The translations under genes and the position numbers were made by a program. Below, in pieces: positions 2,245-49,519 of a DNA stretch of 64,000 nt. The notes under the pieces are model-generated. The model ran no database searches. It was not told the DNA's origin and saw only the letters and a list, made by a program, of their open reading frames with translations. The DNA is from a virus. How positions within the stretch are numbered: the stretch's first letter is position 1; the number at the start of each line of letters is the position of its first letter. The stretch lies in IMG/VR virus record IMGVR_UViG_3300011113_000396, positions 32,001-96,000 of that record; one strand, 5' to 3'.

Positions 2245-2661
2245 ATGTCTGATATAACAAACAAAGAACAACTCAATAATTTTCTAGAAATAACTAATCC
2301 AAAAACTTTGAAGCAAGAATCTTCTATAGTGAAGAAAAATGTAGAAGATGACTATGAATATGCTAGAGATAACATTAGAGAGATTCTAGAGAAGGGCAAA
2401 ATGGCTTTAGATGGCATTCTTCAGGTTGCTCAGGATGGAGACTCCCCCAGAGCATACGAAGTCGCTACAAATATGCTCAAGGCTCTCTCAGAGATCAATA
2501 AAGATCTCATGGATGTCCATGTTAAGGTCAAGGATAGTGAAAAAACCACAATTAAGCAAACCAATAACGCTATTTTTGTGGGTTCTACCTTAGATCTTCA
2601 AGACATGATAAATAAAGAAAGAAGCTCAAAGAAAGCGATAATACAGGACAACAATGTTTGA
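2245..2661 (+). CDS. gp16: Terminase small subunit (T4 gp16-like)
   Basis: DYEYARDN, PRAYEV and NNAIFVGST..LQ motifs. Confidence 0.88.
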   Translation: MSDITNKEQLNNFLEITNPKTLKQESSIVKKNVEDDYEYARDNIREILEKGKMALDGILQVAQDGDSPRAYEVATNMLKALSEINKDLMDVHVKVKDSEKTTIKQTNNAIFVGSTLDLQDMINKERSSKKAIIQDNNV

Positions 2662-5600
2662 TTCATTTTATAACGATTGCATTAAAAAGAACACGATAGC
2701 ATTTGCTTCGTTATTTAACAACATCTATGTGAATAGAGAGGACACAGAGGAATCTAAAAAAATAAAAGTACCTCTAGTATATGGCGGTAAGGAAAAGTAT
2801 GTAAGTCGCCTTCAAAATCCGTCTAGTATTTCTGAAAAAGATAAGCTTCAAATAACTCTTCCCATGATGAGTTTTGATATGTCTAATCTGCAATACGATA
2901 CGCAGAGACATAGAAACAAACTTGAATTCAACAAGCTTTTTTATCAAGAAGAAGGTGAGACTAAAGCCAAAATTAAAATAGGCGAATATCCTTGCTTGAT
3001 GCAATTTAATCTTGCAATTTACACTCGTAATATTGAAGAAAATTTTCAAATTATTGAGCAAATTGCACCCTATTTCACGCCTGAATATATTCTTACTCTA
3101 GATTTTGATAAGACTTTGACTAGAGGTATTGATATTCCGATTAATCTAGTTGCATCAAAGATCGGAAATGACTATGAAGGTGGATTTGGCAATCGTAGAG
3201 CTGTAGTAAGTACCTTACAATTTGTAATGCGTACCTATTTGTTTGGTCCTGAGCGAGAAGCAACGCCAATTCTTACAACTGATTTTAATCTTAATACCCA
3301 AGACAGCTTTTTACAATTTATTACAGATGTTCAAGTCAATGATGACTTATATCTTAACAATCAATCTATTACAGTTACTTGGAGGCAGGGAGGTATTTTC
3401 CCCAGAAATCCAACTATCGTAATTACAAATCTTACAAACTACACCCAAGAAATAGTCTACGATCCAGAAACATTTGACGTTGGCGATGGAACTAATAGTG
3501 TTACATTTCCTATACCAGCTTCTGCTCCTTTGCTACAACAGTTATATGTAAGAGTATTTTTGGGCACAGTATCAGATAATTCGCCAGCATTTGAAATTAG
3601 ATCAGCTGCTGGAAATATTTCCTTGTTACGGTTGGCTAATTTTTCTGGGACAACTTTTAATGATTTGATGTCATCCAACCACTATTTCTTTACTCAAAGT
3701 GGTGTGACACAATTTCCAAGAGGCAACAATCTTGTCTTGGCTTATAATTATGGCTCATATAGCGATCTTAACATTAAAACGCCCGGATTACTTGAATATT
3801 ATCGTGCATTTGGCTTAACATTTAGAGCAAATACAATTGACAATCCACAAATTCCATTTGGTAGCGTTATACACAACGGCATGTGGGCTGGTATAAGTTA
3901 TGATCAGAACAGAGTTTTGCCTTGTTTAACAATTTACATGAGACCCGGAGCCAATGTAAATTTATATGCAAACCAAGGTGATGGGGTGTTCGGCACAACA
4001 CAAGGATCATTAGCAAATAGAAGAACAAGTGAGGATATGTTCCAAGCAACATATGGTTCTCAATCTTATTATATTAATGGATTTTGGGGATGGAATGGAA
4101 CTACAAGTACTATAAGTATTGGATCATATCCAACAGCTGGCATTACAATAGAGAGTGGTTTTAGTGGATATATTTTTGACAAAAATAATCAAAATAGATA
4201 TCCCGACACCGGAAAATATTCAACTGGTGTAACTCATTCTCAAGCAGGCCCATCAATAAGAACATTATTTGATCCAACATTTACTCAAAAGTTATATCCA
4301 AATCGTGGGGCAACAGGTCTAAGAGCTTGGCAAATTACTGCCTTTGGTAGTAATAATCCAGCTGATTTATTTTTTGATTCAAATGTAATTTCTGGTTCGA
4401 CTCTACCGATTTTTACTGCCAATCCCAATTTGTCCGGTTCTGATTTTAATTATCTTGATAACAATGATAAGATGAGATTTGGAACGTATATGGACTGTTA
4501 TAGAATAGCCCATAATGGAAACACATATTTGATTCCATCTCCATTTACTGCAAATCTTGTTACAGATATGCTTGGGTTTACTGCATATAAATCGACTGGA
4601 TTTACAGGCAGAGAAGAATTTGCTGGTAAGTTTGGAACAACCTATGTGGGAGGATGGAATAAATTATTTGATTTTGTTTATGCTGGAAAAAATATAAATG
4701 GTGTTACGTTTACCCCACCCACTCCATGCGTGGATATTATTTTCAATGATCATGAACTTAGATGGGGACTGGGTTTGGGTGCTGATGCCTTGATGATATG
4801 GAGATTCATGCTTTTGGTTGATGGGTTGACAACTGCTTGGATCAATAGAGTCAAACAAGATGAATTCTGGCCAAATCTTCAGGCCAAATATGCAGAATAT
4901 CCCGGCCTGTCTTTTGACAGAATCTTTGATAATATGAAAAATTCATTTATTCAGTTTACATCAGGACCTTTATCGAGAAAAGGTCTTCATGGAGGAATTC
5001 AGTTTTCTACTGATGCATTGCCATTGAATGAATTTTATGACAATGAGGTTAGAAAATATTGGTATGGACTTCAGGAAACAAGCGAAAGAAGAAGTCCGGG
5101 ATGCAAATTTGCTCCAGTTCATGTAAACAGAATTCCTAAATTAAAATCAGCTGCTCGTTTTAATGATGTAACAATTCAGAGCTTTTCTCAAGGAGTAACA
5201 TTACCATACGAATTAATATATCATTATCCTTATGGTTATCCTTATACTTTCTCAAATTATCAGGGAAGATATAGAAGAACAGGTTATGGCCCTACACCAT
5301 CTAATCCAATAGCATTACAAGGTGTAACAAATATAGTCATAAATCTAAATCCAACGGTACAACAAGTAAATATATCATCTGATAAGCTTGTTCCTTGGTT
5401 TATTGAGGACTCCGTTGGACAAACTGGTACAGCTTTTAATGTAGGTATTTCATATAATCAAACATATTTTGAAACAAACCAATTACCTACTACATTGGGG
5501 AACGGTACTTTTGTATCTTTCTTTGGTAAATATCAAGAACCTTCACTCTGGCCTACGGCGGGAAGATCTTTATCAGAAAAATATGAACCATTTTTTGCAA

Positions 5601-6724
5601 TAAAACACGAATCAAAAGAAATTCGTGGCGTAATTGAAGAAAATATGAGTCATGGGGTTTCTGGAATATTCATCTATAATAATATTTTATTTAATAGAGT
5701 AACATATCATGTTCCACATGGATATGAAAACAGTTGGTTTATGGATAGTTTACCTTCAGTTGCAAATAATTTTGCTAGAGGATTTACTTATAATGATCCT
5801 GCAATATTTTCAAAAACAGATTTTAGTGGGGTTGATCAAAGACAAAATCCAAATTACCAACCGATAAATTTTTATCATTCTTATAACGAAAATATATTCA
5901 TATCAAAATTATTAACACCGCTTCCACTTAATATTTTAAATCAAGCTGTAATTTTCCAAGGACCTATAACAAATGAAAATGATTCTAGTGCTGGGTATTA
6001 CGGAATTCACCCTAAATCTTGGAACAATTTTAAATACAATGATGAGATTTTATTAAATCATATTTTATGGGATATAGAAGTTGCTACCCATGGAAGAACA
6101 TATGAATATCTTTCTTCATCTGATGATATTTCAATGGAAGAAGCTTTAAGATATGAGGTTGGAGGATTTAATATCTCTAAATTGAATCCGGCTTTAGTTA
6201 GCAAAGTTAGATTGTTGGGTGTTACTGGGTCTGATCAAAATTTAATCTTACACAGAATTACTCTACCAATTCCATATATTTTAACAACTGATTATGCAAA
6301 ACCAGAACAGGGTTCATATTACGATAATTGGTATAATAATCATTTTGCTCAAAATGTTTTAGCCACAAGTGTCGATCCTTCCACTGGAACAACCCTTGAT
6401 AACATTAATCTTATCACGACTGGAAATAGAGATTTAGACTTCTATACTAAGTCTGTTGTAACAGAATCAAACGGTTCTCACTCATGGAGTACACTTAGAA
6501 CTGATAATAACATCAGACGTTTCAGTGTTGATGTTTTTGCTGGGACTCAATTAGTTGGAAACTTAGTACCAAGCAAATACTATCCAATGGGTGTTTGGTT
6601 GGTTACTGATGAAGTATCAATATTACCAGACGGAACCACGTTTAATAATTACAACTTAACTTTCCAATATCGTGATGCTGGTCCAATGGTTGATGGAATT
6701 ACTACTGCACCTTATAGAACATGA
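2654..6724 (+). CDS. gp15: Tail sheath stabiliser/tail terminator (T4 gp15-like, first ~215 aa) fused to a ~1100-aa extension of unknown function
   Basis: N-terminal FY...KK..AF.SLFNNI, KVPLVYG.KEK, LPMMSF and QIIEQIAPYFTP motifs; remainder G/T/N/F/Y-rich. Confidence 0.8.
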   Translation: MFDSFYNDCIKKNTIAFASLFNNIYVNREDTEESKKIKVPLVYGGKEKYVSRLQNPSSISEKDKLQITLPMMSFDMSNLQYDTQRHRNKLEFNKLFYQEEGETKAKIKIGEYPCLMQFNLAIYTRNIEENFQIIEQIAPYFTPEYILTLDFDKTLTRGIDIPINLVASKIGNDYEGGFGNRRAVVSTLQFVMRTYLFGPEREATPILTTDFNLNTQDSFLQFITDVQVNDDLYLNNQSITVTWRQGGIFPRNPTIVITNLTNYTQEIVYDPETFDVGDGTNSVTFPIPASAPLLQQLYVRVFLGTVSDNSPAFEIRSAAGNISLLRLANFSGTTFNDLMSSNHYFFTQSGVTQFPRGNNLVLAYNYGSYSDLNIKTPGLLEYYRAFGLTFRANTIDNPQIPFGSVIHNGMWAGISYDQNRVLPCLTIYMRPGANVNLYANQGDGVFGTTQGSLANRRTSEDMFQATYGSQSYYINGFWGWNGTTSTISIGSYPTAGITIESGFSGYIFDKNNQNRYPDTGKYSTGVTHSQAGPSIRTLFDPTFTQKLYPNRGATGLRAWQITAFGSNNPADLFFDSNVISGSTLPIFTANPNLSGSDFNYLDNNDKMRFGTYMDCYRIAHNGNTYLIPSPFTANLVTDMLGFTAYKSTGFTGREEFAGKFGTTYVGGWNKLFDFVYAGKNINGVTFTPPTPCVDIIFNDHELRWGLGLGADALMIWRFMLLVDGLTTAWINRVKQDEFWPNLQAKYAEYPGLSFDRIFDNMKNSFIQFTSGPLSRKGLHGGIQFSTDALPLNEFYDNEVRKYWYGLQETSERRSPGCKFAPVHVNRIPKLKSAARFNDVTIQSFSQGVTLPYELIYHYPYGYPYTFSNYQGRYRRTGYGPTPSNPIALQGVTNIVINLNPTVQQVNISSDKLVPWFIEDSVGQTGTAFNVGISYNQTYFETNQLPTTLGNGTFVSFFGKYQEPSLWPTAGRSLSEKYEPFFAIKHESKEIRGVIEENMSHGVSGIFIYNNILFNRVTYHVPHGYENSWFMDSLPSVANNFARGFTYNDPAIFSKTDFSGVDQRQNPNYQPINFYHSYNENIFISKLLTPLPLNILNQAVIFQGPITNENDSSAGYYGIHPKSWNNFKYNDEILLNHILWDIEVATHGRTYEYLSSSDDISMEEALRYEVGGFNISKLNPALVSKVRLLGVTGSDQNLILHRITLPIPYILTTDYAKPEQGSYYDNWYNNHFAQNVLATSVDPSTGTTLDNINLITTGNRDLDFYTKSVVTESNGSHSWSTLRTDNNIRRFSVDVFAGTQLVGNLVPSKYYPMGVWLVTDEVSILPDGTTFNNYNLTFQYRDAGPMVDGITTAPYRT

Positions 6725-11300: not shown

Positions 11301-12738
11301 AATACCCGGTTATTCTGGGTTAGGTGTAACAAATTATGCTGCTTATTATACAACTACTCCAAGGGCAATAACTGGTATTTTTGTAGGTAGTGGAGTTACG
11401 TTAGGGGGAATAACTATTAGTCCCCCAGCAACTGGTTGGCCAGCTTCTGCGACTCTTACTGTAAGAGTAAGTCCAATATTTAAATCATTTATTAATATTA
11501 CAAGTGATGTTGATGTTTTACGGACTAATTCTTATGTTAGAGATACATCATTCTCAACTGCTGCTCAACCAACAACTGGTGGGGGTGGTGGTGGATCGTC
11601 TAGTGGATCCGTAAGCGTATCAGAATCTGTTGTTACTGGTGTCGCTTTCACCTCAACCGAAAACGATTTCTATGCAGGATTCCTCTGTGGTACTACTGCT
11701 TATAATATTATTACAAATAATAGTACTGCTTCGTATTCAGTACTAACCAGTAGCAGCACAGCCTACGCCAACGCCAAGGCTGCGTTTGATGCTGGAACTC
11801 TAACGTCAAACACTTCAACAGACATTGAAATTCATTCTTTACTTAACTATATGGATTACGGTGGAAACATAATTGTTGCCCCAACAATTGATGGATTGTT
11901 AGGAAGCAATTATGAATATGATGTAGTATTTGCTGAAGACAATAAGAGATATGGTGAATTGATGCGTATTGGTTCTGAAAAGAATCATGCAATTGTTATT
12001 GTTGGAACCTCCCTTGAAGAGGATGCAGCCTCATTTGCAGCTCCAGCATATACTAATCTCAATTCAGCAGGGCTTGTTGATGGATTGACCTATATGACAA
12101 CTGCAAATAAGGGTGAATATGTGTTCTCAGTGCTAGGATACAAGAATAGAACCCGTTTCTATGGTTCCGGAACTGATACTGTTCGCCTTTATCTGTCCTC
12201 TGATGTTGCAGGCGCATATGCTCGTTCGTATGTAGAGAATAAATACCACTTATCAAGCTCTGGTTCGATTAGAGGCGGAATCAAAACTTATTCAAATATT
12301 ACTCCAACTATTGTAGATCGTGATCTCTCTGGCTATTACACCAGAGGTATCAACCCAATCTACATTCCAAGCGGTACAAACAGAGCTGCTATTTGGGGAG
12401 ATGCCACTGGTATTACTACAGGAAACGAAGTATATAGAAAGTCGGCTTCAATCTCCAAGAACACTAGCACAATTAAGAGAGAATTCAAGAAGATCTTTGA
12501 AGACTTCCAATTTGAACAAAATAATGCTGGTACAAGAGCACAATTCGTTTCAAGAGCAACTACTGTTCTTGATAAGTTGCAATCTGTTGGTGGCCTTGCT
12601 TCTTACACGTTAATTTGCAATGAAACAAACAATACCCCAACTGTAATTGCACAGAAGAGATTGGTTGTTGACTTGACAATAGTACCTAATAATTCAATCG
12701 AATCTATAGTCTTGAATTTTGTTCTTAATCAAATCTAA
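8356..12738 (+). CDS. Tail sheath-like protein 1 (gp18 domain in last ~380 aa) with ~1080-aa N-terminal extension
   Basis: C-terminal RGINPI..WGD, FEQNNAGTR, ICNETNNTP and LVVDLTIVP..SIESIVLNF; GGGGGGSSSGS linker before the sheath domain. Confidence 0.75.
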   Translation: MAELTHSHNISGTLIGLTPGSAPLTVGLTFSVDGVSFSSVNFDLRIDVDTFDLSVPYTSIDTFRELNGSSEVLIANNSNGLIVSNTGTTWNHFIGITLYSPQQNIFNAGLANQMLAGDLHYRTRANNFSLKYGAFGQTGSGQIAEVASSTRGETLSFRPFNIVSATNGVAGSTLGLTLQSANIQRYYVGIGTGATFFGIVSLLGCTNGINLNSSNLTSTQISEINADYLDPNISGTDSKFNTLRRIIDNSGTTIFNTSYTEFVVPKHIPTGSYYLMPIPNSFFGLPAFSNDESFTASGQNINLSQTNINITNNISSGLTGVYSLSSGVTHFTTAISTRLPIVSQAFSNVDFADKTFSIFDPITFNLVTSPYGITNNLTGNTFHKLDYGFNNRGTTNYGGALTDNPVSHVPPLFGFIPIGLTIGNTLTVLLDGITFYEKIYNPYNVNFNNTSLAHFYTSESTIQNNKRFIRLINESGDLAAKRNLNHINRAFYRVDFNNHANPWGFTGFTFGQGSTQSQLKVFYGNPANGISFILPINTGSPADFYSLTGQDVFIPIQGTASGSTLTPGASVEIHYQNRPLGYLEKLNLYNASGNFALGITIADNRTFIPKNTTELGYIRKNFDQSNVETFIVPNLNSVGSTGTARISFIRGDGVSFEFGSTPITTPFRTFSPIHTIGNISGLTLIATGVTQSTSPTSFTRFIAPAVDLMRITVNHGLTNLESGIIGRNNIHSRYYMQSNVDNFLTDGSFYRGYLSFILDSVGPENVVNNGISVTNRTLRSFREAALERANNINAINGISLSIPLRNFQGVITEGWPFDTIEGNSSLTQLMNYFNGPPLTEAQLSAVADTFNYPQYDTGFTLMFDQGDSPDETFNNGEWFLANPQSFLRYSSGSTFFPSTAFSFDNTTISFPHYIFYDYRITGVTLSSTSSVQSQQSLTTTITVQDLPHASIFDGLRLSVLNGTSEVFTKNLLYTTSSSNDYRIPGYSGLGVTNYAAYYTTTPRAITGIFVGSGVTLGGITISPPATGWPASATLTVRVSPIFKSFINITSDVDVLRTNSYVRDTSFSTAAQPTTGGGGGGSSSGSVSVSESVVTGVAFTSTENDFYAGFLCGTTAYNIITNNSTASYSVLTSSSTAYANAKAAFDAGTLTSNTSTDIEIHSLLNYMDYGGNIIVAPTIDGLLGSNYEYDVVFAEDNKRYGELMRIGSEKNHAIVIVGTSLEEDAASFAAPAYTNLNSAGLVDGLTYMTTANKGEYVFSVLGYKNRTRFYGSGTDTVRLYLSSDVAGAYARSYVENKYHLSSSGSIRGGIKTYSNITPTIVDRDLSGYYTRGINPIYIPSGTNRAAIWGDATGITTGNEVYRKSASISKNTSTIKREFKKIFEDFQFEQNNAGTRAQFVSRATTVLDKLQSVGGLASYTLICNETNNTPTVIAQKRLVVDLTIVPNNSIESIVLNFVLNQI

Positions 12739-12744
12739 TAAATA
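12737..12744 (+). promoter_or_regulatory. Late promoter-like box (AATAAATA)
   Basis: TATAAATA variant 4 nt before ATG 12749. Confidence 0.5.
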
Positions 12745-33740: not shown

Positions 33741-33741
33741 G

Positions 33742-35419: not shown

Positions 35420-35437
35420 ATATAAAATTAATTTATT

Positions 35438-37862: not shown

Positions 37863-37864
37863 AA

Positions 37865-38626: not shown

Positions 38627-38627
38627 T

Positions 38628-39395: not shown

Positions 39396-39498
39396 ATGCT
39401 TAATAATGAGGAAATAGAAGAAATTTTTAATAAATTTGTTAAAATAAATTATACTCATGAGTACGACACACGATATCACAAATAAAAAAGGTCTAAAA

Positions 39499-40128
39499 AT
39501 GAAAAGAACTGAACAATTAGTAAATATATTAGAAGATTCCGATAAAAATTATTTATTTTCTAAATTACCTGAATCTATTTTTAAAATTCAAGGCATGTCT
39601 GGAAAATATTTTAAAAATGTTTTAAACAATATTTTATCTAACACCTTTATTAAAGAATATCTTGAAATAGGCGTATGGAAAGGTTCAACCTGTGTTGCAG
39701 GATTGTATGAAAATCAAAATAGATTAAATTACCATATTATTGATAATTTTTGTTCTTTCGGTGGACCAAAAGAAGAATTTGAAAAAAATTTTCAAACATT
39801 TTTGAATAAACCGTCAAATATAATTGATGCAGATTGTTTTTCAATTAAACCAAGTGAGCATGGAATAAAAAATATAGATGTGTATTTTTTTGATGGTCCA
39901 CATGAAAAAATAGATCAATATAATGCTCTCAAATATTATTATGAATATTTAAACGAATCATTTATTTTTATTGTAGATGATTGGAATTGGGAAATGGTTA
40001 GACAAGGCACATGGGATGCTATTAAAGATTTAAATTTAAATGTTCATAAAAATATAGAACATTTTACCGAAACACAGGATTCAAATACTTGGTGGAACGG
40101 GTGCAGTTTTTTTGTTTTGGAAAAATAA
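39499..40128 (+). CDS. Class I SAM-dependent methyltransferase
   Basis: YLEIGVWKGST, FFDGPH and IVDDW motifs; start set at ATG 39499. Confidence 0.75.
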   Translation: MKRTEQLVNILEDSDKNYLFSKLPESIFKIQGMSGKYFKNVLNNILSNTFIKEYLEIGVWKGSTCVAGLYENQNRLNYHIIDNFCSFGGPKEEFEKNFQTFLNKPSNIIDADCFSIKPSEHGIKNIDVYFFDGPHEKIDQYNALKYYYEYLNESFIFIVDDWNWEMVRQGTWDAIKDLNLNVHKNIEHFTETQDSNTWWNGCSFFVLEK

Positions 40129-40130
40129 AC

Positions 40131-40802
40131 ATGAACTTAGATATTTCAAATATTTTTATTTATATTATTCATTATAAAGGCGCAGTTGACAGAAAAACAT
40201 ATTTATCTGAATGGTTAGATCGCAACAGCTTAAAAGCAACATGGATGACAGATCCAGATCGTAACGATCTTACACAAGAAGTAATATCGCAATATTATAA
40301 TCAACATTGTACAAAAGAATGGTCTGATTATCCTCATCTCAATAGATCTTTGACCAAAGGCGAAATAGCATGTTCCATTGCCCACTTGAATGTTTATAAG
40401 GATGCAATAGAAAAAAATTATTCTAATATATTAGTTTTAGAAGATGACTGTACATTCGTACCAAATTTTATTTTAAAGTTTAATAAATTGATGGAAAAAA
40501 TTCCAGATGATTATGACGTTATCTCTTTAGGATCATGTTGTAATTTAAAACACGAAAAAGCCCATCTAGTAACAGAACCAACTTTATTTAAAAAAATACC
40601 GCCAGTTGGCAGATGTGCTTTTTCAAACCTTTTAAGTTTAAAAGGTTGTAAAAAAATCGTTGAAAGATGCATTCCATTTAGTTATCCAATGGATTGGCAA
40701 GCATTTGTGATAGCATCACAACATAATGAAGATCCGTTCAATTTTTATTGGGTAGAACCACCTATAACGATAGATGGTCAAAGTCCAACCACAGTAGGAT
40801 AA
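40131..40802 (+). CDS. Glycosyltransferase, GT25-like
   Basis: GEIAC..AH, LVLEDD and P.DW motifs; start set at ATG 40131. Confidence 0.8.
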   Translation: MNLDISNIFIYIIHYKGAVDRKTYLSEWLDRNSLKATWMTDPDRNDLTQEVISQYYNQHCTKEWSDYPHLNRSLTKGEIACSIAHLNVYKDAIEKNYSNILVLEDDCTFVPNFILKFNKLMEKIPDDYDVISLGSCCNLKHEKAHLVTEPTLFKKIPPVGRCAFSNLLSLKGCKKIVERCIPFSYPMDWQAFVIASQHNEDPFNFYWVEPPITIDGQSPTTVG

Positions 40803-40804
40803 AT

Positions 40805-41392
40805 ATGAACCAAAATTACTTAACTAATTTAATCGAAGATTGTTTATATGGCAAAACTGATATAAGCCAACATAGGCTGTTCTTATTTTCATTGGTGTGT
40901 GCAATGAAACCAAAAAAAATATTAGAACTTGGCGTCAGGGGTGGCCACTCAACGAGTGCGTTGTTATATGCATGTGACCTCATTGATTCGCAGCTAACAT
41001 CGGTCGATATATCAGACCACCATTTTAGTTGTCCCGAGGAATTGAAGCATAGGTGGTGGTTTACAAAAAGTGATGCAATAAAATTTTTAGAAACAACTTC
41101 CGAAACATATGATATGATTTTTATAGATGATTGGCACGCCGAGGAACACGTTTACAAAGAATTGACTTTACTAAAAGATAAAGTAAAGCCAAATAATCTT
41201 ATATTACTTCATGATCTCATGCATAGTTTTTCCCATCCAAACTATACAACACAGGTTTATCCGTCAGGGCATGAATTTGAGGGATTAGGTCCCTATGGTG
41301 GCGTTCTTAAATTTGTTAAAGAAAATGTAAATTTTGAGTTTGCCACCGTACCCACTAATCACGGAATGACCATTTTGAGAAAAACAATATGA
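40805..41392 (+). CDS. Class I SAM-dependent methyltransferase
   Basis: ILELGVRGG.ST, SVDI, IFIDD.H and LLHD motifs; start set at ATG 40805. Confidence 0.78.
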   Translation: MNQNYLTNLIEDCLYGKTDISQHRLFLFSLVCAMKPKKILELGVRGGHSTSALLYACDLIDSQLTSVDISDHHFSCPEELKHRWWFTKSDAIKFLETTSETYDMIFIDDWHAEEHVYKELTLLKDKVKPNNLILLHDLMHSFSHPNYTTQVYPSGHEFEGLGPYGGVLKFVKENVNFEFATVPTNHGMTILRKTI

Positions 41393-42216
41393 GACATTTA
41401 ATATTAGGTTCAAGTGGACAGATAGGCTCACATTTAGTTCCTTATTTAAAAACTAAAAACATTCAATCTATTGAATTTGACCTTGTCAACTCACCGTATC
41501 AAGATCTTAGAATAAATAATAATACTTTTCTTGAAAAATGTATAGATGAATCGGATTTTGTATATTTTTTGGCTTTTGATGTTGGTGGCTCACGATATCT
41601 CAAAACCTATCAAAATAGCTATTCTTTTATAGAAAATAATACAAAGTTGATGGACCAAACATTTGGGTTATTGAAAAAATACAATAAGCCGTTTCTATTT
41701 ACTTCCTCACAAATGTCAAATATGGACTATTCACCATACGGAACATTAAAACGATTGGGTGAATACTATACAAATTCTTTAAATGGTTTAGTTGTTAAAT
41801 TTTGGAATGTATATGGGATTGAACATGACGAAAATAAATCTCATGTGATAACTGATTTTATTAAAAAAGCATTAAAAAATAAAAAAATAGACATGCTTAC
41901 TGATGGTTCGGAGGAAAGACAATTTTTATACGCTGATGATTGCTCTGAGTGTCTTTTGACTTTGTCTCAAAAGCTTAATATTTTGGATAGAACAAAAGAA
42001 TATCACATTACAAATTTTAAATGGTCAAAAGTTATTGATGTGGCTAAAATTATTCAAAAAAATATCGATTGCGATATTGTACCAGCAACAACAAAAGACT
42101 CAATTCAATTGAATAAAAAAAATGAACCGGATACACACATATTGCAATATTGGAAACCAAGAACCACGTTAGAAGAAGGTATAAATAAAATGTGTTTTTA
42201 TTATAAGAAATTGTGA
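41389..42216 (+). CDS. NAD-dependent sugar epimerase/dehydratase (SDR)
   Basis: GSSGQIG, YGTLK (YxxxK), NVYG and RQFLY.DD motifs. Confidence 0.85.
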   Translation: MRHLILGSSGQIGSHLVPYLKTKNIQSIEFDLVNSPYQDLRINNNTFLEKCIDESDFVYFLAFDVGGSRYLKTYQNSYSFIENNTKLMDQTFGLLKKYNKPFLFTSSQMSNMDYSPYGTLKRLGEYYTNSLNGLVVKFWNVYGIEHDENKSHVITDFIKKALKNKKIDMLTDGSEERQFLYADDCSECLLTLSQKLNILDRTKEYHITNFKWSKVIDVAKIIQKNIDCDIVPATTKDSIQLNKKNEPDTHILQYWKPRTTLEEGINKMCFYYKKL

Positions 42217-42228
42217 AAGGAATAAAAA

Positions 42229-43206
42229 ATGAAAAAAGCTCTTGTGCTGGGTGCTGGTGGATTTATCGGAGGTCATTTAGTAACTCGTCTAAAGAATGAA
42301 GGCTATTGGGTTCGTGGCGTTGATATAAAAGAACACGAATACAAAAAAACAGATGCGGATGAGTTTTTTGTATTGGATCTGAGGATTCAAGAAAATGTTG
42401 CAAAATCACTTGCACTCACAAGTAATTCTGGATTTGATGAAATATATCAGTTAGCCGCAGATATGGGTGGTGCTGGTTACATTTTTACCGGTGATCACGA
42501 TGCAGATGTTATGCACAATTCAGCGTTGATTAATTTGCACGTTACACAGGAAGCAATAAAATATGCTAAACTACCTAAAGTATTCTATTCATCTTCAGCA
42601 TGCATGTATCCAGAATACAATCAACTAGATCCAGATAATCCAAAATGCTCAGAGGATTCTGCATACCCTGCTGCCCCCGATAGTGAATATGGCTGGGAAA
42701 AATTATTCAGCGAACGGTTATATTTGGCATATAATCGAAATTATGGTCTTCCTGTTCGTATTGGTCGTTTTCACAATATTTTTGGTCCATATGGATCATG
42801 GAATAATGGTAAGGAAAAAGCTCCAGCCGCAATATGCAGAAAAGTTGCTTTTTCTGAAAATGGTACAATAGAAATTTGGGGCGATGGAAAGCAAACAAGA
42901 TCGTTTTTATATATCGATGATTGTGTAGAAATAGTAAGACGATTTATGGAATCAGATTTTAATGGTCCTATGAATATAGGTTCAGAAGAAATGATATCTA
43001 TAAATGGTTTAGCTGAATTAGTAATGCATTTGGCAAATAAAAAATTAATAATCAAAAATATTTCTGGCCCTCAAGGAGTGCGTGGAAGAAATTCAGACAA
43101 CAAATTGATGCGCGATAAACTTAATTGGGAACCAAATCAACCATTATCCATCGGTTTAAAGAAAACTTATGACTGGATTTATAGCTTAAAAACTTGTCAA
43201 TATTAA
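42229..43206 (+). CDS. GDP-mannose 3,5-epimerase-like SDR
   Basis: GAGGFIG, LAADMGG.G, SSSAC.YP, YGWEKL, RFHNIFGP.G.W..GKEKAPAA.CRK and GV.GRNSDN motifs. Confidence 0.85.
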   Translation: MKKALVLGAGGFIGGHLVTRLKNEGYWVRGVDIKEHEYKKTDADEFFVLDLRIQENVAKSLALTSNSGFDEIYQLAADMGGAGYIFTGDHDADVMHNSALINLHVTQEAIKYAKLPKVFYSSSACMYPEYNQLDPDNPKCSEDSAYPAAPDSEYGWEKLFSERLYLAYNRNYGLPVRIGRFHNIFGPYGSWNNGKEKAPAAICRKVAFSENGTIEIWGDGKQTRSFLYIDDCVEIVRRFMESDFNGPMNIGSEEMISINGLAELVMHLANKKLIIKNISGPQGVRGRNSDNKLMRDKLNWEPNQPLSIGLKKTYDWIYSLKTCQY

Positions 43207-43221: not shown

Positions 43222-43227
43222 AAAATT

Positions 43228-44457
43228 ATGAACCCTACAATAACATTATGCATGATCGTTAAAAATGAATCCGCAGTGATTCTCCAGTGCCTTGAATCGA
43301 TGTACAAGTATGTTGATCGATACGACATCACGGATACTGGTTCTACTGACGGAACCCAAGACATTATCCGCAAGTTCTTTGCAGAAAAGGGAATCCCCGG
43401 TGAGATCTACCAGTCAGATTGGAAGGGATTCGGTGACCATGCTGGCCGCATTGGTTCTAGAACCGAGGCTTTCCGAAACTGCGACGGCAAGGCTGACTAT
43501 GTTTGGGTAATTGATGCAGATGATTATCTTGAAGGCGATTTCAAGTATCCCCCAAACATGAATGCTGCGGCCTATGCTCTTACATTTAAGAGAGATGATT
43601 TCACTTGGTGGAGAACTCAGATCTTCAAGAATGAACTTCTTTGGAGATATGTTGGTGTTCTTCATGAATATCCAGATACTGATAAGAAGCCATATGCTGT
43701 TGAAAAGATTCATGGCAATTATCATGTCACAGCCAGAACTGCTGGATTCGAAAGAAACGCAAACAAAACACTTGTTGAAAAGTATTCCAAGGATGCAGAA
43801 ACCCTTGTCAAGGCTCTGGAAGAAGATCCAACGAATGTTCGATATATGTTCTATCTTGGACAAAGCTATTTTGATTCGCAGCAATGGGGAAAGGCTGAAG
43901 ATGCTTACCTAAAGCGTTCCAAGATGGGTGATTGGGGTGAAGAAGTATTCTTTTCTCTTTACCGAGCGGCAATCTGCAAGATTCTACAAGCAAAGGCATG
44001 GCCAGAAATTTATGATGCCTTCCTTAACGCTTACGAATCACGCCCAACAAGAGCAGAACCATTATATCAACTCGCTAGGCTAAATCGCCTACATAATAGA
44101 CCAAGAACAGGATTTATCTATGCACAAATGGCAGCACAAATTCCATACCCTCAAGAAGACCTTCTTTTCGTTGATCACGGTATTTACAAGTGGGGTATTT
44201 TGGACGAAATTTCGTCAACTGCTTGGTATGCGGGTAAGCCCCACATCGGCTTTGAAGCCAGCCGCGTGCTGCTGCAAGAGAAAAGGTTGCCGCAAGACCA
44301 AACAGACAGAGTCACGAAGAACTTCTTAACTTATAAGGATCTGCTAGAAAAACTCCACACTCAGCAGCAGATGAATGTGGAAGCAGAAAAGGAGAAGGCA
44401 AAGCAACAAAAGAAACAGCAGAAAAAGATGAAAAGGATGCAAAAGTTAAGAAGGTGA
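43228..44457 (+). CDS. GT2 glycosyltransferase with C-terminal TPR-like repeats
   Basis: [27 protein letters not shown], then helical repeats (RY.FYL.QSY.D, RP.RAEPL). Confidence 0.85.
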
Positions 44458-44458
44458 C

Positions 44459-46186
44459 ATGAAATTCTCAGATATCTTTAAAAAAGAACAAAAAATAAAT
44501 CTTGCTGGCCTAACCAAGCAAGATGTTCTTTTATTAAAAGAAGATATTTCAGAATTTAAGACTGGTACTAAGTTTACTGTCAATCCCAAAAACAAGAGTG
44601 ATAAGTCCGTAGAAATAGGCGATGGTCTTACCGAATTGCATCTAGTTGATGAAAAAGGTAAAACTGTCCTATTTTCGGGAAATTACTCAAAAATTGCGTC
44701 ATTATTCACAATTTTAGAGGAAAAGACCCCCGAACCACAAATCATAGTTGTAGAAAAAACTATTGTCAATGAGATAAAAAAGAAACAAGTAATAGAAGGC
44801 AAAGAAGGTCCGATAGGGCCACAAGGCCCAAGAGGTGATATTGGAGCCAGAGGGGAACTAGGACCTGTTGGGGCTAAGGGAGAGCGCGGAGAACAGGGTG
44901 AGGTGGGCGAACAGGGTCCACAGGGCATTGCTGGCCCAATCGGGCCTAAAGGTCCAGTAGGACCGCAGGGGCCAAAGGGAGACAAGGGAGATAAAGGCGA
45001 TCAGGGAGTTCCCGGAGAACGAGGTCCTATAGGCCCAGAAGGTCCAAAGGGAGATCGCGGAGAAGCTGGAGAGCCGGGACTTGATGGATTGCAGGGAGAA
45101 CGAGGGCTAATTGGTCCGCAGGGTCCAAAGGGAGATATGGGAGAACCGGGTCTTCCCGGACCAAGAGGCCTAATGGGTCCACAAGGACCAAAGGGAGAGC
45201 GCGGAGAACCCGGAGAACAGGGTCCAGAAGGTCCTCAAGGTCCAATAGGACAAGACGGCCTTCCCGGTGAAAAGGGCGACAAGGGCGATCCCGGTGTCGT
45301 TTCTGCCAGTTTTCCATTAATCTACGACAAAAAATCGGCAAATCTAAGTTTTGACACTAAATTTTTGGACGATAAGATCACCAAGATAGCTGTAGATCCA
45401 CTTTTGGCTAGCGGTGGCAGTGGTCTGGGTGTCAAAGAAAACGGATCAATACTTGTCAAAACGGGTGTTGATTATTTGGATTTTAGAGGTTCTATTGATC
45501 TTACCAGACAAGGTAGAACTGTTATCGTTACAGGAACATCTTCAGGATCTGGTACTGGCATAACTGGCCCTACAGGTCCAACTGGTCCAGCGGGTGCAAC
45601 TGGTGCTGACGGATCGATTGGTCCTGTGGGTCCGACTGGTGTTACGGGAGTTACTGGTGCTGATGGTTCAATTGGCCCTATTGGTCCAACAGGTGCTACA
45701 GGCGTTACAGGAGCAGACGGTTCAATCGGCCCTATTGGTCCAACAGGTGCAACTGGAGTTACTGGTCCTATTGGACCTACTGGAGCTACAGGACCATCTG
45801 GTATAACCAATATTAATGGTATTACTTTATCCCCTGTAACTATAAGAGATGGAACTGGAATTTTAATAGCAAATAATATTCCAAATAGAGAAATAAGTAT
45901 TGAAAACGCTTGGGGAGAATTAGCAGATTCGAATTCAACCCTTGAACCGTATATTTTAGTTAGTTTAAATGGATTAATAGGTGCTCCATCATTATTTGCC
46001 GGAACAGGAATAACTCTCTCTGTCGGAACTCAAGGTATTACAATTTCATCCACTTTACCCAAGTTCACGGAAGGGACAACTGCCCCAGCAAATCCAATTG
46101 CAGGAGATAGGTGGTACAATACAGACGATGGTGTGATATACACATCAGTTACTAAATCAGGATCACAAATTTGGATAGTTGGATGA
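44459..46186 (+). CDS. Collagen-like (Gly-X-Y) virion fibre protein
   Basis: Charged G-X-Y tract then a GPT/GAT/GVT-rich tract. Confidence 0.85.
45549..45803 (+). repeat. Thr-rich collagen repeat including ~3 copies of GADGSIGP(I/V)GPTG(A/V)TGVT
   Basis: 54-nt periodic, synonymously diverged repeats. Confidence 0.75.
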
Positions 46187-46199
46187 GGATAAATAGAGT

Positions 46200-48755
46200 A
46201 TGCCGATAAATTTTCCCAATTCACCAAGCATTGGAGCTACCTACGACTACGAAGGTATTCATTATATTTACAATGGTATAGGCTGGGTCAACAAAAGCAT
46301 TTTTGGTATTTCAGCTGGAACTAATATTAGCTTTACTAATTATAATGGCACTGGTCCTCTAATTATTTCAGCGATAGATACTACTGGTATAACCAGCGCA
46401 GTAACATCATTCAATGGTAAAACAGGTGCGGTTCAGGGAGTATCTAGTTTTGCTGGGCTAACAGGAACAGTTGGTTCTGGAATAACCACAAACGGAATTT
46501 TATATTTTGATGGTTCTGACGTTCAAGGATCAGCACTCCTGACATTTAATGGTTCTGATATAGTTCTTGATACATCTGGTCATTTTGATGGGAATATACT
46601 TGGTAGATCTGAAGTCTATATTAAAGCAGATGAAGCAATAAACGAAGGAGATCCAGTTTATGTTACTGGTTCTGTTGGTGCGTCTGAGCGATTGACTGTT
46701 GCAAAAGCCGATTCAGCAATTTCTGCAAAAATGCCTGCTGCTGGTATAGCCGCTCAAAGTTTAGCTTCGAATGGTGAAGGAGTAATGATTATTAATGGCT
46801 GGGTCCGGAATTACGATACGACGGGGCTAACAGCAAATCAAATACTATTTGTTGCTTCTGGTGGTGGTTTGACCGCTACAAGACCAACATCTGCTGGAGT
46901 ATTGGTTCAGAACATAGCAAGAGTTGGCAGACCAAACCACGCAAACGGCTCAATCATTGTAACTGGAGCAAGTAGAGCAAATGATGTACCAAACACTATT
47001 CGCGTATATCAGTACATTGAGATGCCAGATGGATTTACGTTCAATACTGTTGTTTCTAGTTTCAATGGAAACACGGGAGCTGTTCAAGGAATATCAGCAG
47101 CTGTTGCGGGATCTGGTATCAGTGTTTCTGGTGCTACTGGATCTGTTACTATTACCAATACTGGTGTCTTGAGTTTTAATGGTAATACTGGAGCAATCCA
47201 AGGTGTATCTTCCATCAATGGAGCAACTGGTGCAATTACAAGTGTTGCGTTTACAAATGCAGCACAGACTTTTAGTGCTTTACAGAGTTTTAGTTCTGGT
47301 ATTTCTGCTAGTAGTGGGATTACTTTTGGAAATAATTTAACAATTAAAACTGGATCAGGGGATTTAACGATTGGTTCTAATTCAGGACCATTAAATACTC
47401 TTGTAATTGGGAATGCATCGTTAGCATCAAATAATACTATAGCTAACTCTATTATCATTGGCAAAAATGCAATGTCATCTTCTGGTGTAAATTCTGCTGA
47501 TTCTTTTGCAATAGGTTTAGGAGCGTTGAATTCCAATGATGCTACTTCAAATTTTGGTATTGGGGTAGCAGCAGGATATAGCACTACTTTAGGTGGTGAA
47601 AATTTCTTTATTGGAAATAATGCTGGTTATGATTGTGTTGAAGGTTCTGGAAATGTCGCCATAGGTCCAGCAGTATTACAAAATATTAATAATGGAACAG
47701 AAAATACAGGTATTGGATATTCGTGTTTATTTAGTTCTGTTGACACTAATTTCAATACTGCTGTTGGATCTGCTTCTTTACAAAATACATCATCTGGATC
47801 CGAAAATACTGCTATCGGATATGCATCTTTAGCAACTAACCTTACAGGAGCAGGAAACGTAGCACTTGGATATAATGCTGGTTTATATAGAGGCACAGCA
47901 TCATTATCAAGAACTACTGGTACTGGTGGAATTTATATTGGATATCAAGCAAGAGCATCAGCTAATGCAATGACCGATGAAATCGTCATCGGTAGAAATG
48001 CAGTTGGTCTTGGATCAAATACAGCAGTCATTGGTGCAACTGCACAATCATCTGCCACGATTTATGGAGTAATGAATCTTCCGGGTGGATTGAGTGCTTC
48101 TGGTGGAATTACTTTCAATAGTAACATACAAATCAATAATAAAGCAATTCTTGGATCTGCTGCTTTAGGAGCAGCAACTCCCGGTTGTATTGAATTTGAT
48201 GGAAATGTGGTTTATGCAGGAACTACCGCTGGTAGAGGAGTTGTAAGTACTCAACAAATATCAGTAATGACTGCGGCTACTAAATCTTTATTAAATGCTA
48301 CGGGAGATCAAAATATTTTTGATACTCCACAAGATGTAATAACATTGGCTGCAAATACGACATATCAGATTGAAGGTTATATTCTCCTTTCAACAGGTAC
48401 AACTACCCTTAGACATTTATCTTTGAGATTTACTCAAGGTATTGTTGCTAATCCTCCAACAATACATTTTGCGACAATAGGCGTTCCTACCACTAGTGGC
48501 GGAGCAGTAAGAGCACAAGACACAGCATTCTTCAACACTACCACTGGAGGAGTGATCACCCAAACTACTTTTAATACTAATAGCTACAATGTATTTATTA
48601 GAGGTTTAATAAAAACTGTAGATTCTGTTACTATAACACCACAAATAGCATTCAGTGCAGCACCGGGAGTCACAAATACTGTTAATTTCGGTACATATAT
48701 TTCATTCATTCCGATTGGAAATGGATCGATGGCATCTGTAGGGCCTTGGGCATAA
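46200..48755 (+). CDS. Tail fibre/adhesin-like protein
   Basis: INFPNSP..G N-terminus, five VxSxNGxTG-type repeats and YadA-head-like N(T/V)A(V/I/L)G repeats. Confidence 0.7.
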   Translation: MPINFPNSPSIGATYDYEGIHYIYNGIGWVNKSIFGISAGTNISFTNYNGTGPLIISAIDTTGITSAVTSFNGKTGAVQGVSSFAGLTGTVGSGITTNGILYFDGSDVQGSALLTFNGSDIVLDTSGHFDGNILGRSEVYIKADEAINEGDPVYVTGSVGASERLTVAKADSAISAKMPAAGIAAQSLASNGEGVMIINGWVRNYDTTGLTANQILFVASGGGLTATRPTSAGVLVQNIARVGRPNHANGSIIVTGASRANDVPNTIRVYQYIEMPDGFTFNTVVSSFNGNTGAVQGISAAVAGSGISVSGATGSVTITNTGVLSFNGNTGAIQGVSSINGATGAITSVAFTNAAQTFSALQSFSSGISASSGITFGNNLTIKTGSGDLTIGSNSGPLNTLVIGNASLASNNTIANSIIIGKNAMSSSGVNSADSFAIGLGALNSNDATSNFGIGVAAGYSTTLGGENFFIGNNAGYDCVEGSGNVAIGPAVLQNINNGTENTGIGYSCLFSSVDTNFNTAVGSASLQNTSSGSENTAIGYASLATNLTGAGNVALGYNAGLYRGTASLSRTTGTGGIYIGYQARASANAMTDEIVIGRNAVGLGSNTAVIGATAQSSATIYGVMNLPGGLSASGGITFNSNIQINNKAILGSAALGAATPGCIEFDGNVVYAGTTAGRGVVSTQQISVMTAATKSLLNATGDQNIFDTPQDVITLAANTTYQIEGYILLSTGTTTLRHLSLRFTQGIVANPPTIHFATIGVPTTSGGAVRAQDTAFFNTTTGGVITQTTFNTNSYNVFIRGLIKTVDSVTITPQIAFSAAPGVTNTVNFGTYISFIPIGNGSMASVGPWA

Positions 48756-48767
48756 TAGGAGATTAAT

Positions 48768-49067
48768 ATGGCATTAATAAAATCATTTCAAGCAGTCAAT
48801 GGCAACACATACACTTATTGGAGAATCGAAAAAATAGATCTTCAGCCAAAGCAAAACATTTGTGTAATTCGTGCTGTGGGTTACGCAGATCAAGCAGCAA
48901 GCACACAAGAAATGGCTCAAAGATATAACAAAATATTTGCAGTTGGTGATGATTACTCTACTTACTTTGATTATTCTATACTTGATATGTTAGGAGAAAA
49001 TCAGACACATCAAGCATATGAATTCTTAAAAACTCAATCATTCTTTTCCGGTTCTACAAACGCATAA
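48768..49067 (+). CDS. Hypothetical protein, possible fibre chaperone
   Basis: AGGAG RBS; follows the fibre gene; YWRI and QAY..LK motifs. Confidence 0.55.
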   Translation: MALIKSFQAVNGNTYTYWRIEKIDLQPKQNICVIRAVGYADQAASTQEMAQRYNKIFAVGDDYSTYFDYSILDMLGENQTHQAYEFLKTQSFFSGSTNA

Positions 49068-49078
49068 TAAATAATCAT

Positions 49079-49519
49079 ATGCCAGCAGGAAGATATGACA
49101 TCATCGCAGAACAAGGAGCCTCCTTCAAGATCCAATTTGATTATTTGTATGCTGGAGTCGGAGGAACTGGAATAAGCTTGAGTAATTATACTTGCAGAAT
49201 GCAAGTTAGAAAGTCTGCGTTAGACGAAAAAATTCTAATGGATCTTTCTATTTCTGGATTGACTTATGGCGGAACTACTGGTTTTTATCAACCCGGAGTC
49301 ATAACTGGATCTACAGGAGTTGGTGGAATTACTCTTAATAGAGATATAAATGGTTCTGTTAAGAATGGCGGTATTTTGATAACAGCATCTTCTACTGTAA
49401 CTAAATCGTTACCAGTAGGAAGACATCATTATGATCTTGAATTGACTAATACTGTCTCTGGTGATGTTTTAAGATTACTTGAAGGTACATTCGAAGTTAA
49501 TAGAGAGGTAACACGATAA
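49079..49519 (+). CDS. Virion structural protein (Ig-like/BppU-like)
   Basis: EQGA.F, Y..RMQVRK and YDLEL....V.RLLEG...V..EVTR motifs; late box 49066-49073. Confidence 0.6.
   Translation: MPAGRYDIIAEQGASFKIQFDYLYAGVGGTGISLSNYTCRMQVRKSALDEKILMDLSISGLTYGGTTGFYQPGVITGSTGVGGITLNRDINGSVKNGGILITASSTVTKSLPVGRHHYDLELTNTVSGDVLRLLEGTFEVNREVTR

Follow-up and report, generated by a model that had tools for sequence, protein, structure and literature searches.

A Gly-x-Thr excess in virion proteins of uncultured marine T4-like phages and a candidate SgtA-like glycosyltransferase that may read it

GmaR, the flagellin O-GlcNAc transferase of Listeria monocytogenes (a GT2 + TPR protein), and SunS, a peptide S-glycosyltransferase, are both soluble and cytoplasmic, and they attach sugars to a structural protein or a peptide. 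GmaR doubles as an anti-repressor, and we know of no Gly-x-Thr (GxT)-type acceptor consensus for it. Among phages, mycobacteriophages reportedly encode glycosyltransferases that modify structural proteins of their own particles, and the work of Freeman and colleagues in 2023 is said to have located these glycans on the capsid and tail-tube subunits of siphoviruses of Actinobacteria, in the C-terminal extensions of those subunits. To our knowledge, no short sequon has been described across the virion proteome of mycobacteriophages, their enzymes are not known as GT2-TPR proteins, a few actinobacteriophages are the only phages for which glycosylation of particle proteins has been demonstrated, and an acceptor motif is known for no phage. 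T4-like cyanophages such as P-SSM2 reportedly carry "LPS"/glycan gene clusters (a 2005 report of Sullivan and colleagues), and the usual view is that such clusters serve to change the surface of the host. In Clostridioides difficile, SgtA, which consists of a GT-A domain and four TPRs, is encoded immediately upstream of bclA3, the gene for the collagen-like spore-surface glycoprotein BclA3; in vitro, it puts beta-O-GlcNAc on Thr of short GPT-repeat peptides and also accepts Ser peptides (PMC7157674).

The window analyzed here, i.e., the whole 64,000-nucleotide stretch of DNA from an uncultured marine T4-like phage, encodes a protein (GT2-TPR; Table 1) resembling enzymes of the GmaR/SunS/SgtA kind, which glycosylate proteins or peptides. 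PF00535, the N-terminal GT-A/GT2 catalytic domain, matched residues 7-104 and PF13431 (TPR) residues 195-224, and homologues carry several TPR families. The closest solved relatives were GmaR (E 3.4e-9) and SunS (E 8e-4), for the N-terminal domain only. The DTGSTD and IDADD motifs align with DTGSTD and IDADE of GmaR (the DxD/DAD motif is retained), and the TPR region of SunS aligned weakly at 183-231. Homologues are widespread, numbering 5394 in a large protein database and occurring at no fewer than 567 viral loci, and a tblastn search of the phage collection found no cyanophage or pelagiphage records.

The GT2-TPR gene is a conserved anchor at the 3' end of a variable glycan-building island, whose gene content is swapped wholesale among near-identical phages (L014 and L016). 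The island encodes GT32-like, GT2, GT15, RXYLT1/GT47-like, and GT25 proteins, a UDP-GlcNAc 2-epimerase, two methyltransferases, two NAD epimerase/dehydratases, and three ORFs without a family match. The figure of about ten glycosyltransferases in the initial annotation is therefore somewhat high: Pfam supports six clear cases (the five types above and GT2-TPR) and a weak seventh (GT-D), the rest being sugar-nucleotide enzymes, methyltransferases, and the three ORFs without a family. PHROGs and Pfam searches gave no match for several ORFs of the island and the baseplate region. A crude hydropathy scan found a hydrophobic 19-residue stretch in none of the ORFs at 32074-50216, so the membrane proteins of a lipid-carrier (Wzx/Wzy or ABC) route to O-antigen or capsule (an initiating phosphoglycosyl transferase, flippase, polymerase, or ligase) are missing from the island by this measure. 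Searches for a base hydroxymethylase or TET enzyme that would make the acceptor base for T4-type DNA glycosylation, in which hydroxymethyl bases are glucosylated (PF00303 and PF12851), gave no match in the contig, which is only ~62% complete, and PF12851 matched in none of the control genomes.

Table 1. Features of the window that bear on the GxT excess (GxT counts are observed vs expected)
Feature	Coordinates	Strand	Remarks
gp14 neck protein	1327..2244	+	5 GxT vs 2.1 expected (p 0.05)
gp15 tail-terminator lineage-specific extension, residues 231-1356	3344..6721	+	25 GxT vs 8.3 expected
Sheath-like protein 1, orphan N-terminal 1100 residues	8356..11655	+	35 GxT vs 11.9 expected
Sheath-like protein 1, conserved sheath domain	11656..12738	+	Pfam Phage_sheath_1C and PHROG tail sheath matches
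Sheath paralogue 3	13879..15291	+	8 GxT vs 3.4 expected (p 0.013)
Glycan-building island	32371..43206	+	Pfam matches; AT-rich, GC 0.28-0.30
GT2-TPR glycosyltransferase, proposed initiating protein O-glycosyltransferase	43228..44457	+	Pfam Glycos_transf_2 and TPR
Collagen-like fibre protein	44459..46186	+	Pfam Collagen; begins 1 nt past GT2-TPR gene
GxT-type collagen tract, residues 367-450 (GIT, GPT, GAT, GVT triplets)	45557..45808	+	BclA-like candidate acceptor
Fibre or virion protein with NGxTG-type repeats	46200..48755	+	18 GxT vs 13.6 expected, not significant
146-residue protein, G/T-rich central loop	49079..49519	+	6 GxT vs 2.2 expected (p 0.009)

Tail, neck, and baseplate proteins of this phage and its relatives contain two to three times too many GxT triplets, as determined from observed (O) counts and a composition-based expectation (E). 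The gp15 protein (2654-6724) contains 26 (8.9 expected; 2.9x) and sheath-like protein 1 (8356-12738) contains 38 (14.9 expected; 2.55x), counts that were reached in 0 of 5000 residue shuffles. The hand counts that first drew attention to the motif (about 25 in the gp15 extension and more than 35 in sheath-like protein 1, at two to three times expectation) were borne out, and the enrichment, which survives the shuffled control for composition, is stronger than had been claimed. Among ~200-400 spaced residue pairs, GxT ranked at the top in both proteins (z 5.7 and 6.0), the runner-up reaching z 2.4-2.7. The structural O/E was 2.1, and the excess is confined to lineage-specific parts of the virion proteins. 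In gp15, the match to Pfam T4-gp15_tss is limited to residues 5-225, and this conserved core is neutral (1 GxT vs 0.7 expected); the conserved sheath domain of sheath-like protein 1 is not enriched (3 vs 3.0). All five GxT of gp14 lie in its C-terminal tail, past the conserved domain, and all eight of sheath paralogue 3 are found in its first 170 residues, which precede the conserved sheath domain. Homologues of the gp15 extension, for which no relatives were found in cultured phages, keep a 2.5-3.1x enrichment. For the N-terminal region of sheath-like protein 1, a profile search of 1.84 billion representatives retrieved its own clade only, and no usable look-alike was found in the ESM Atlas.

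The nonstructural ORFs of the window are mildly depleted (31 GxT vs 36.5 expected; 0.85); the initial annotation had called the motif inconspicuous in the replication enzymes. The further structural examples in the initial annotation fared unevenly: those in sheath paralogue 3, the 146-residue protein, and gp14 held (the last at p 0.05), and those in the fibre and in the major capsid protein (4 vs 3.0, with SGATS and SGLTV both present) are not significant. The collagen-like protein has 24 GxT vs 9.7 expected, an excess mostly due to the periodicity of its GxT-type tract. This tract shows the BclA-type trait of GXY repeats with Thr at Y (GPT-type), and the first collagen tract (residues ~115-280) has zero Thr. 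In several relatives with a conserved GT2-TPR, the collagen genes are GxT-poor (1 vs 3.7 expected and similar), and the collagen tract is thus not a universal acceptor. The gene for the 146-residue protein directly follows that for GT2-TPR in relatives; its family (37 members) contains 203 GxT vs 75 expected, with one GxT conserved in 33 of the 37.

An artefact of statistics or composition, arising from G/T-rich patches, collagen periodicity, the NGxTG repeats present in fibres, or a DNA-level signal, is a most improbable source of the excess and is already largely refuted by the controls. Such an account would suit the collagen-like protein, with its mostly periodic excess, but GT, GxxT, GxxxT, TxG, GxS, GxV, NxT, and NxS have ratios around 1 or lower where GxT stands at 2.5-2.9x, and a 1.51x excess is left once collagen runs are masked and NGxTG is removed. 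Local G/T-rich composition was rejected on the adjacent spacings (GT, GxxT, and TxG), and a DNA-level cause was rejected on codon use, which at GxT is ordinary, as at other Gly and Thr codons. An N-glycosylation sequon (N-x-S/T) was likewise rejected, as NxT (O/E 0.80 and 1.02) and NxS (1.17 and 1.28) show no excess in the same gp15/sheath-like protein 1 set. A beta-solenoid repeat had been named at the outset as an alternative, and no sequence repeat explains GxT: the spacing between motifs is irregular, and window-profile searches of the two giant proteins against all genome proteins revealed no internal repeats (best E 0.007, uncorrected). That explanation was rejected for solenoids with periodic sequence repeats carrying GxT, a degenerate, repeat-less solenoid being possible. 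A domain common to the gp15 extension and the N-terminal region of sheath-like protein 1 was also rejected (hhalign probability 0.3%). Since the two proteins are nonhomologous and lack internal repeats, the GxT excess arose independently in each.

GxT ranked first or second in the virion proteins of all eight related genomes carrying the GT2-TPR gene. It is the rank-1 spaced pair in the window even after removal of the two giant proteins and the collagen-like protein (107 vs 62 expected; z 5.7), and also in the virion proteins of G001 (108 vs 66.4) and G002 (81 vs 38); the other ORFs of the window, G001, and G002 are neutral (74/76, 21/20, and 18/17.4 observed/expected, respectively). Five more long GT2-TPR contigs showed 1.41-1.56x in structural-protein homologues, with GxT at rank 1-2, and a pooled 0.85 in nonstructural homologues. 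The control phages yielded O/E values of 1.05 for T4 (rank 115), 1.06 for HTVC008M (rank 75), 1.06 for P-SSM4 (rank 89), and 1.23 for P-SSM2 (rank 9). The expected co-occurrence of the motif with the GT2-TPR gene was thus found, albeit among related genomes (portal identity to the window of 52-66%, vs 45-49% for marine controls), so it does not represent many independent events, and the correlation could come from shared ancestry.

We also analyzed 80 viral loci with GT2-TPR homologues, with collagen runs masked. Their downstream ORFs contain 1592 GxT vs 1009 expected (rank 1 of 400; z 18), and the excess falls from 2.18x in the first downstream ORF to 1.11x by the sixth, the island genes upstream of GT2-TPR being at 1.07. 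GxT was higher downstream than upstream of GT2-TPR in 40 of 47 loci (p 1e-6). In Tunturi_5, an unrelated soil jumbo phage, the gene of a GT2-TPR homologue lies at a distance of five genes from that of a fibre with (GPT/GAT)n tracts, which has 79 GxT vs 30 expected.

In the N-terminal region of sheath-like protein 1, 51% of the Thr residues in GxT are invariant vs 8.7% of other Thr, and the middle position is free to vary. Members of the clade thus keep G and T, with x variable; in distant lineages, GxT positions turn over and density is retained. Thr is replaced by Ser in only 7% of cells, which counts against glycosylation, given that SgtA takes Ser peptides in vitro. The +1 and +3 residues are mostly hydrophobic, with charged ones never found or rare, and the residue before the motif Gly is S, T, or N. 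The motifs had been expected in surface turns, and this context instead looks like a beta-strand; it fits a strand within a folded domain, whose Thr might be out of reach for a transferase. AlphaFold2 models of sheath-like protein 1 were poor for residues 1-1100 (10-row alignment; pLDDT 39.8) and for residues 545-800 (6 rows; pLDDT 49.5), so motif exposure could not be mapped on structure.

This context would suit a purely structural signature of the clade's beta-rich decoration domains, with Gly ending a turn or relieving crowding on a sheet face, a beta-branched Thr two residues on, no modification, and another role for the glycan island, e.g., altering the host surface. The better-modelled hairpins of sheath-like protein 1 place GxT inside or at the start of strands (at low confidence), approximately two-thirds of the motifs in its N-terminal region are conserved down to 38-46% identity, and T4 gp36 and gp37 have a mild GxT excess without such an enzyme. 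However, T4, HTVC008M, and P-SSM4 have large structural proteins that are likewise rich in beta structure and in G/T but lack an excess (1.05-1.06), the excess occurs in nonhomologous, repeat-free proteins, positions change across distant lineages as density is kept, and the excess is greatest in the gene beside GT2-TPR and declines with distance. We therefore regard a structural signature as unlikely, if still a serious contender.

A virion-specific excess in unrelated proteins, combined with position turnover, points to a shared recognition element, which might be read not by a glycosyltransferase but by another trans-acting factor of these phages, for instance a chaperone for assembly or an enzyme that makes some other modification; the three island ORFs and the 146-residue protein lack an assigned function. 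Yet no kinase or other protein-modifying enzyme was recognized in the window ORFs scanned (those outside the replication region), and GT2-TPR is the sole protein-modifying enzyme type found beside GxT-rich genes, which makes such a factor improbable.

The data establish the motif statistics and their confinement to virion proteins, the way the motif is conserved, its association with GT2-TPR in genomes, and the relatedness of that enzyme to known ones. The GxT excess and the presence of an enzyme like bacterial Thr-glycosylating ones suggest that the particles of these phages are probably sugar-coated. Enrichment beyond composition, virion specificity, the lack of a repeat origin, co-occurrence with the GT2-TPR gene, and enzyme kinship favor the original proposal that GxT marks O-glycosylation sites, against which stand the unenriched capsid and fibre examples, the strand-like context, and the mildness of the depletion outside virion proteins; on balance, it is plausible, with chances about even, that GxT is a short acceptor motif at which phage enzymes O-glycosylate virion proteins in the cytoplasm. 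We put forward more tentatively, at slightly less than even chances, the fuller reading of a virion-wide O-glycosylation sequon read by an SgtA-like GT2-TPR in an abundant marine T4-like phage clade, with strain-specific glycan coats on tail, neck, baseplate, and fibres. Under this glycosylation model, the soluble SgtA/GmaR-like GT2-TPR would add the first sugar to the Thr of G-x-T in freshly synthesized structural proteins, where the chain is extended or exposed at the surface. Its candidate substrates are the neighboring GxT collagen tract, the 146-residue protein, and decoration domains in gp15, the sheath paralogues, the neck, and the baseplate. Soluble proteins encoded in the strain-variable island downstream of regA (transferases, methyltransferases, and sugar-nucleotide enzymes) would then extend and decorate the glycan, forming a coat on the exterior of tail and fibres and giving each strain its own. 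The action of GT2-TPR on GxT threonines, the sugar transferred, and the purpose of the coat are what we infer from these data.

If this model is correct, it provides a sequence rule predicting the sugar-bearing virion proteins and residues in a widespread ocean phage group, names the likely initiating enzyme, and explains why these phages have large glycan islands whose content varies even among nearly identical strains. Sugars covering tails and fibres would matter for host recognition, for how well the phage withstands proteases and grazers, for its sticking to particles, and for the evolution of phage surface proteins. If it is wrong, the GxT excess remains an unexplained clade-specific feature of virion proteins.

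Like the cyanophage clusters, the locus is an AT-rich island of a marine T4-like phage that codes for glycosyltransferases and sugar-nucleotide enzymes, whereas P-SSM2 has no detectable GT2-TPR homologue and only a weak GxT excess. GmaR has DTGSTD and DxD in common with GT2-TPR; the alignment of GmaR and SunS to the phage enzyme is limited to the first ~100 residues, and, unlike for GmaR, nothing suggests an anti-repressor role. GT2-TPR is likened to SgtA by architecture and gene position, not by sequence. In contrast to SgtA/BclA3, phage GxT is also abundant outside collagen, in the beta-rich domains of many virion proteins, its middle position is mostly taken by V, L, I, T, S, or F instead of the Pro of GPT, and the enzyme gene closes a large glycan island that varies from strain to strain. 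Both enzymes have an N-terminal GT-A/GT2 domain and C-terminal TPRs in about 360-410 residues, and both are encoded directly upstream of a collagen-like gene. The SgtA/BclA3 acceptor is the Thr of G-x-T triplets, for which short linear peptides are enough in vitro, and this is the same triplet as the phage GxT.

The excess of Gly-x-Thr triplets (GxT) is real, specific and confined to virion proteins, and it is tied to a clade of phages encoding an SgtA/GmaR-like glycosyltransferase (GT2-TPR). Gene identities were assigned with Pfam and PHROGs, and all long ORFs of the window lie on the + strand. The parent contig (113 kb) is viral and about 62% complete; among cultured phages, marine T4-like cyanophages and pelagiphages come nearest, with matches limited to conserved cores.

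Features annotated in the window
Feature	Position	Strand	Basis or remark
gp14 neck protein	1327-2244	+	Pfam/PHROGs
gp15 tail terminator, 1356 residues; conserved domain = residues 5-225 only	2654-6724	+	Pfam/PHROGs
Large terminase	6721-8355	+	Pfam/PHROGs
Three sheath paralogues	8356-12738, 12749-13882, 13879-15291	+	Pfam/PHROGs
Two tube paralogues	within 8356-16424	+	Pfam/PHROGs
Portal	16436-17977	+	Pfam/PHROGs
Major capsid protein	20929-22332	+	Pfam/PHROGs
AT-rich island: glycosyltransferases, sugar-nucleotide enzymes, methyltransferases	32371-43206	+	Pfam/PHROGs
GT2-TPR glycosyltransferase, 409 residues	43228-44457	+	Pfam/PHROGs
Collagen-like gene	44459-46186	+	begins 1 nt past GT2-TPR; fibre gene next

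The initial annotation, which proposed GxT as a sequon for O-glycosylation of virion proteins, had counted the triplets by hand in two giant proteins, and its counts were accurate: the gp15 protein contains 26 (its own composition predicts 8.9) and sheath-like protein 1 (sheath-1) contains 38 (14.9 expected). The claimed enrichment beyond composition also held, with 0 of 5000 residue shuffles equalling the observed count in either protein. GxT was the top over-represented i, i+2 residue pair in both (z 5.7 and 6.0, respectively), the runners-up reaching z 2.4 to 2.7. This excess is limited to the lineage-specific parts, i.e., gp15 residues 231 to 1356 (25 versus 8.3 expected) and sheath-1 residues 1 to 1100 (35 versus 11.9); the conserved gp15 core (1 versus 0.7) and the conserved sheath core of sheath-1 (3 versus 3.0) have none. 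The orphan N-terminal region of sheath-1 (about 1075 to 1100 residues) leads through a conserved GGGGGGSSSGS linker to the sheath domain.

As the annotation had anticipated, structural and non-structural proteins differ: pooled structural proteins of the window contain 117 GxT versus 54.6 expected (2.14), and non-structural ORFs contain 31 versus 36.5 (0.85). Over the contig as a whole, the ORFs ranking next in enrichment lie upstream of the window, in the baseplate block near gp48-like and gp6-like genes. The excess in the collagen protein arises from an uncharged, GxT-type collagen tract (residues 367 to 450); its other tract (about residues 115 to 280) carries charges (GPQ/GPK/GER-type triplets) and lacks Thr entirely. 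The capsid-loop and fibre examples cited in the annotation are present but show no statistical enrichment. PxT ranks second among over-represented spaced pairs in the contig's structural ORFs (window -20746 to 49519) minus the giant proteins (50 versus 28.7, z 4.0), and in broader protein sets it is not enriched (0.89 to 1.03).

GT2-TPR is present in seven other long contigs (G001, G002 and G006 to G010), and the suggested co-occurrence with GxT excess was found in all of them. In structural proteins of G001 and G002, neither of which has the giant extensions, GxT ranks first (1.6-fold and 2.1-fold, respectively); in G006 to G010, whose portals are 52 to 61% identical to that of the window, it ranks first or second at 1.41- to 1.56-fold. 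G001 and G002 each have just two short sheath paralogues (389 to 436 residues), versus three in tandem in the window. The pooled non-structural homologues of G006 to G010 again stand at 0.85 (87 versus 102.8), and this mild deficit in replication and metabolic proteins could, marginally, reflect avoidance.

Local G/T-rich patches are ruled out as the cause, since GT, GxxT, GxxxT, TxG, GxS, AxT, SxT, NxT and NxS lie at 0.4 to 1.35 times expectation in the giant proteins, where GxV is depleted. A DNA-level signal is not the cause, because codon use at the motif matches that of other Gly and Thr residues. Nor does a repeat or beta-solenoid, the origin that the annotation had weighed against its own proposal, find sequence-level support: the gp15 protein and sheath-1 are not homologous (hhalign probability 0.3%), no 70-column profile window of either has a second copy among all of the genome's proteins (best E 0.007 before correction), and GxT spacing along them is irregular.

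The main rival explanation, that GxT is a structural habit of the clade's beta-rich domains involving no modification, seems to us rather unlikely. In its favour, the context around GxT is strand-like (S, T or N preceding Gly; hydrophobic residues at positions +1 and +3; charge almost absent), Thr is preferred over Ser, and the GxT-positive genomes are kin. If these segments are strands, Gly and Thr would occupy the face opposite the hydrophobics, with Thr exposed; both AlphaFold models of sheath-1 (residues 1 to 1100 and 545 to 800) are of low confidence (pLDDT 39.8 and 49.5). The control phages argue against such a habit, since the excess is not general to beta-rich phage structural proteins: O/E is 1.05 in T4 (rank 115 of 351), 1.06 in HTVC008M (75 of 286), 1.06 in P-SSM4 (89 of 326) and 1.23 in P-SSM2 (9 of 320), in sets that take in giant G/T-rich baseplate and fibre proteins.

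Turnover of GxT positions also tells against a structural habit. Homologues of both giant proteins are confined to one small clade of uncultured phages, and the excess is 2.2- to 3.1-fold in all of them. In clade relatives (L001 to L010, compared with window 2654 to 12738), genes neighbouring the giant proteins are 86 to 99% identical to those of the window, the gp15 extension is 65 to 94% identical and the sheath-1 N-terminal region is 47 to 88% identical; the latter two evolve fastest in these genomes and are thus decoration domains. Within sheath-1 residues 1 to 1100, Thr is invariant in 51% of GxT versus 8.7% for other Thr and Gly in 49% (other Gly, 38%), the middle position varies freely, polar residues included, and Thr is replaced by Ser in just 7% of alignment cells. 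Between the window and G001/G002, whose tail proteins share about 30 to 45% identity, most GxT positions differ and density is maintained: a baseplate protein of 242 residues carries 8, 7 and 7 GxT with 2 columns common to all three, and a 798-residue protein has 15, 10 and 7 with 22 columns found in one genome only. This pattern is expected of a short recognition motif, not of a fold requirement.

A GxT gradient around the GT2-TPR gene is likewise at odds with a structural habit. The family is large, with 5394 homologues among database metagenomic proteins and at least 567 IMG/VR loci. In the viral loci compared (16 close, 80 more distant), GT2-TPR closes a glycan island on its 3' side; next come a homologue of a 146-residue protein and/or collagen and fibre genes. 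With collagen runs masked, ORFs downstream of GT2-TPR in the 80 loci contain 1592 GxT versus 1009 expected (z 18, first among 400 pairs). No other spacing is enriched, and the excess falls from 2.18-fold in the first ORF to 1.11-fold in the sixth; it is still 1.51-fold after dropping a known NGxTG fibre repeat, and upstream island genes stand at 1.07. GxT is higher downstream than upstream in 40/47 loci (p 1e-6). In the 37 members of the 146-residue family, GxT number 203 versus 75 expected, and one of them, adjoining a variable G/T-rich loop, is kept in 33/37. The gene for this 141- to 146-residue protein directly follows GT2-TPR in most relatives (about 11215 to 11645 in L017 to L027), and the stop and start codons of the two genes often overlap; the window has it behind the fibre gene instead (49079-49519). 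[quoted passage not shown]"

The most economical reading, to which we give about an even chance, is that GxT is the acceptor motif of the GT2-TPR enzyme, the variable island building the remaining glycan. Some relatives keep GT2-TPR with GxT-poor collagens, so the collagen tract could not be the only acceptor. A crude hydropathy scan shows no membrane segment in any protein that the window's island encodes; hence, none of the membrane proteins required by a lipid-carrier pathway is encoded there. One island gene (36154-36960) strongly matches Glyco_transf_15 (E 1.5e-41), uncommon for a phage; these Kre2/Mnt1-type alpha-1,2-mannosyltransferases are best known for fungal protein mannosylation. 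In L014 and L016, core genes are 95 to 100% and GT2-TPR 97% identical to the window's, and the gene set upstream of GT2-TPR (1-9979, compared with window 32371-43206) is wholly different. Such wholesale swapping between strains resembles O-antigen loci.

The closest solved relatives of the GT2-TPR protein, which retains the DTGSTD and DxD motifs, are GmaR (E 3.4e-9), which transfers O-GlcNAc to Listeria flagellin, and the peptide S-glycosyltransferase SunS. A homologue (37% identity; L044:19998-21101) occurs in the unrelated soil jumbo Tunturiibacter phage Tunturi_5, directly downstream of a nucleotidyltransferase gene and five genes from ORF29 (L044:24810-29219), a 1469-residue tail fibre with 79 GxT versus 30. 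This fibre interleaves eight (GPT/GAT)n collagen tracts with globular repeats. Clostridioides difficile SgtA combines a GT-A domain with four TPRs, is encoded directly upstream of the collagen-like bclA3 and puts beta-O-GlcNAc on Thr when given short synthetic peptides of the GPT-repeat region (PMC7157674). The gene order in the window is the same: GT2-TPR, a 1-nt gap and then a collagen gene whose product contains a [12 protein letters not shown] tract.
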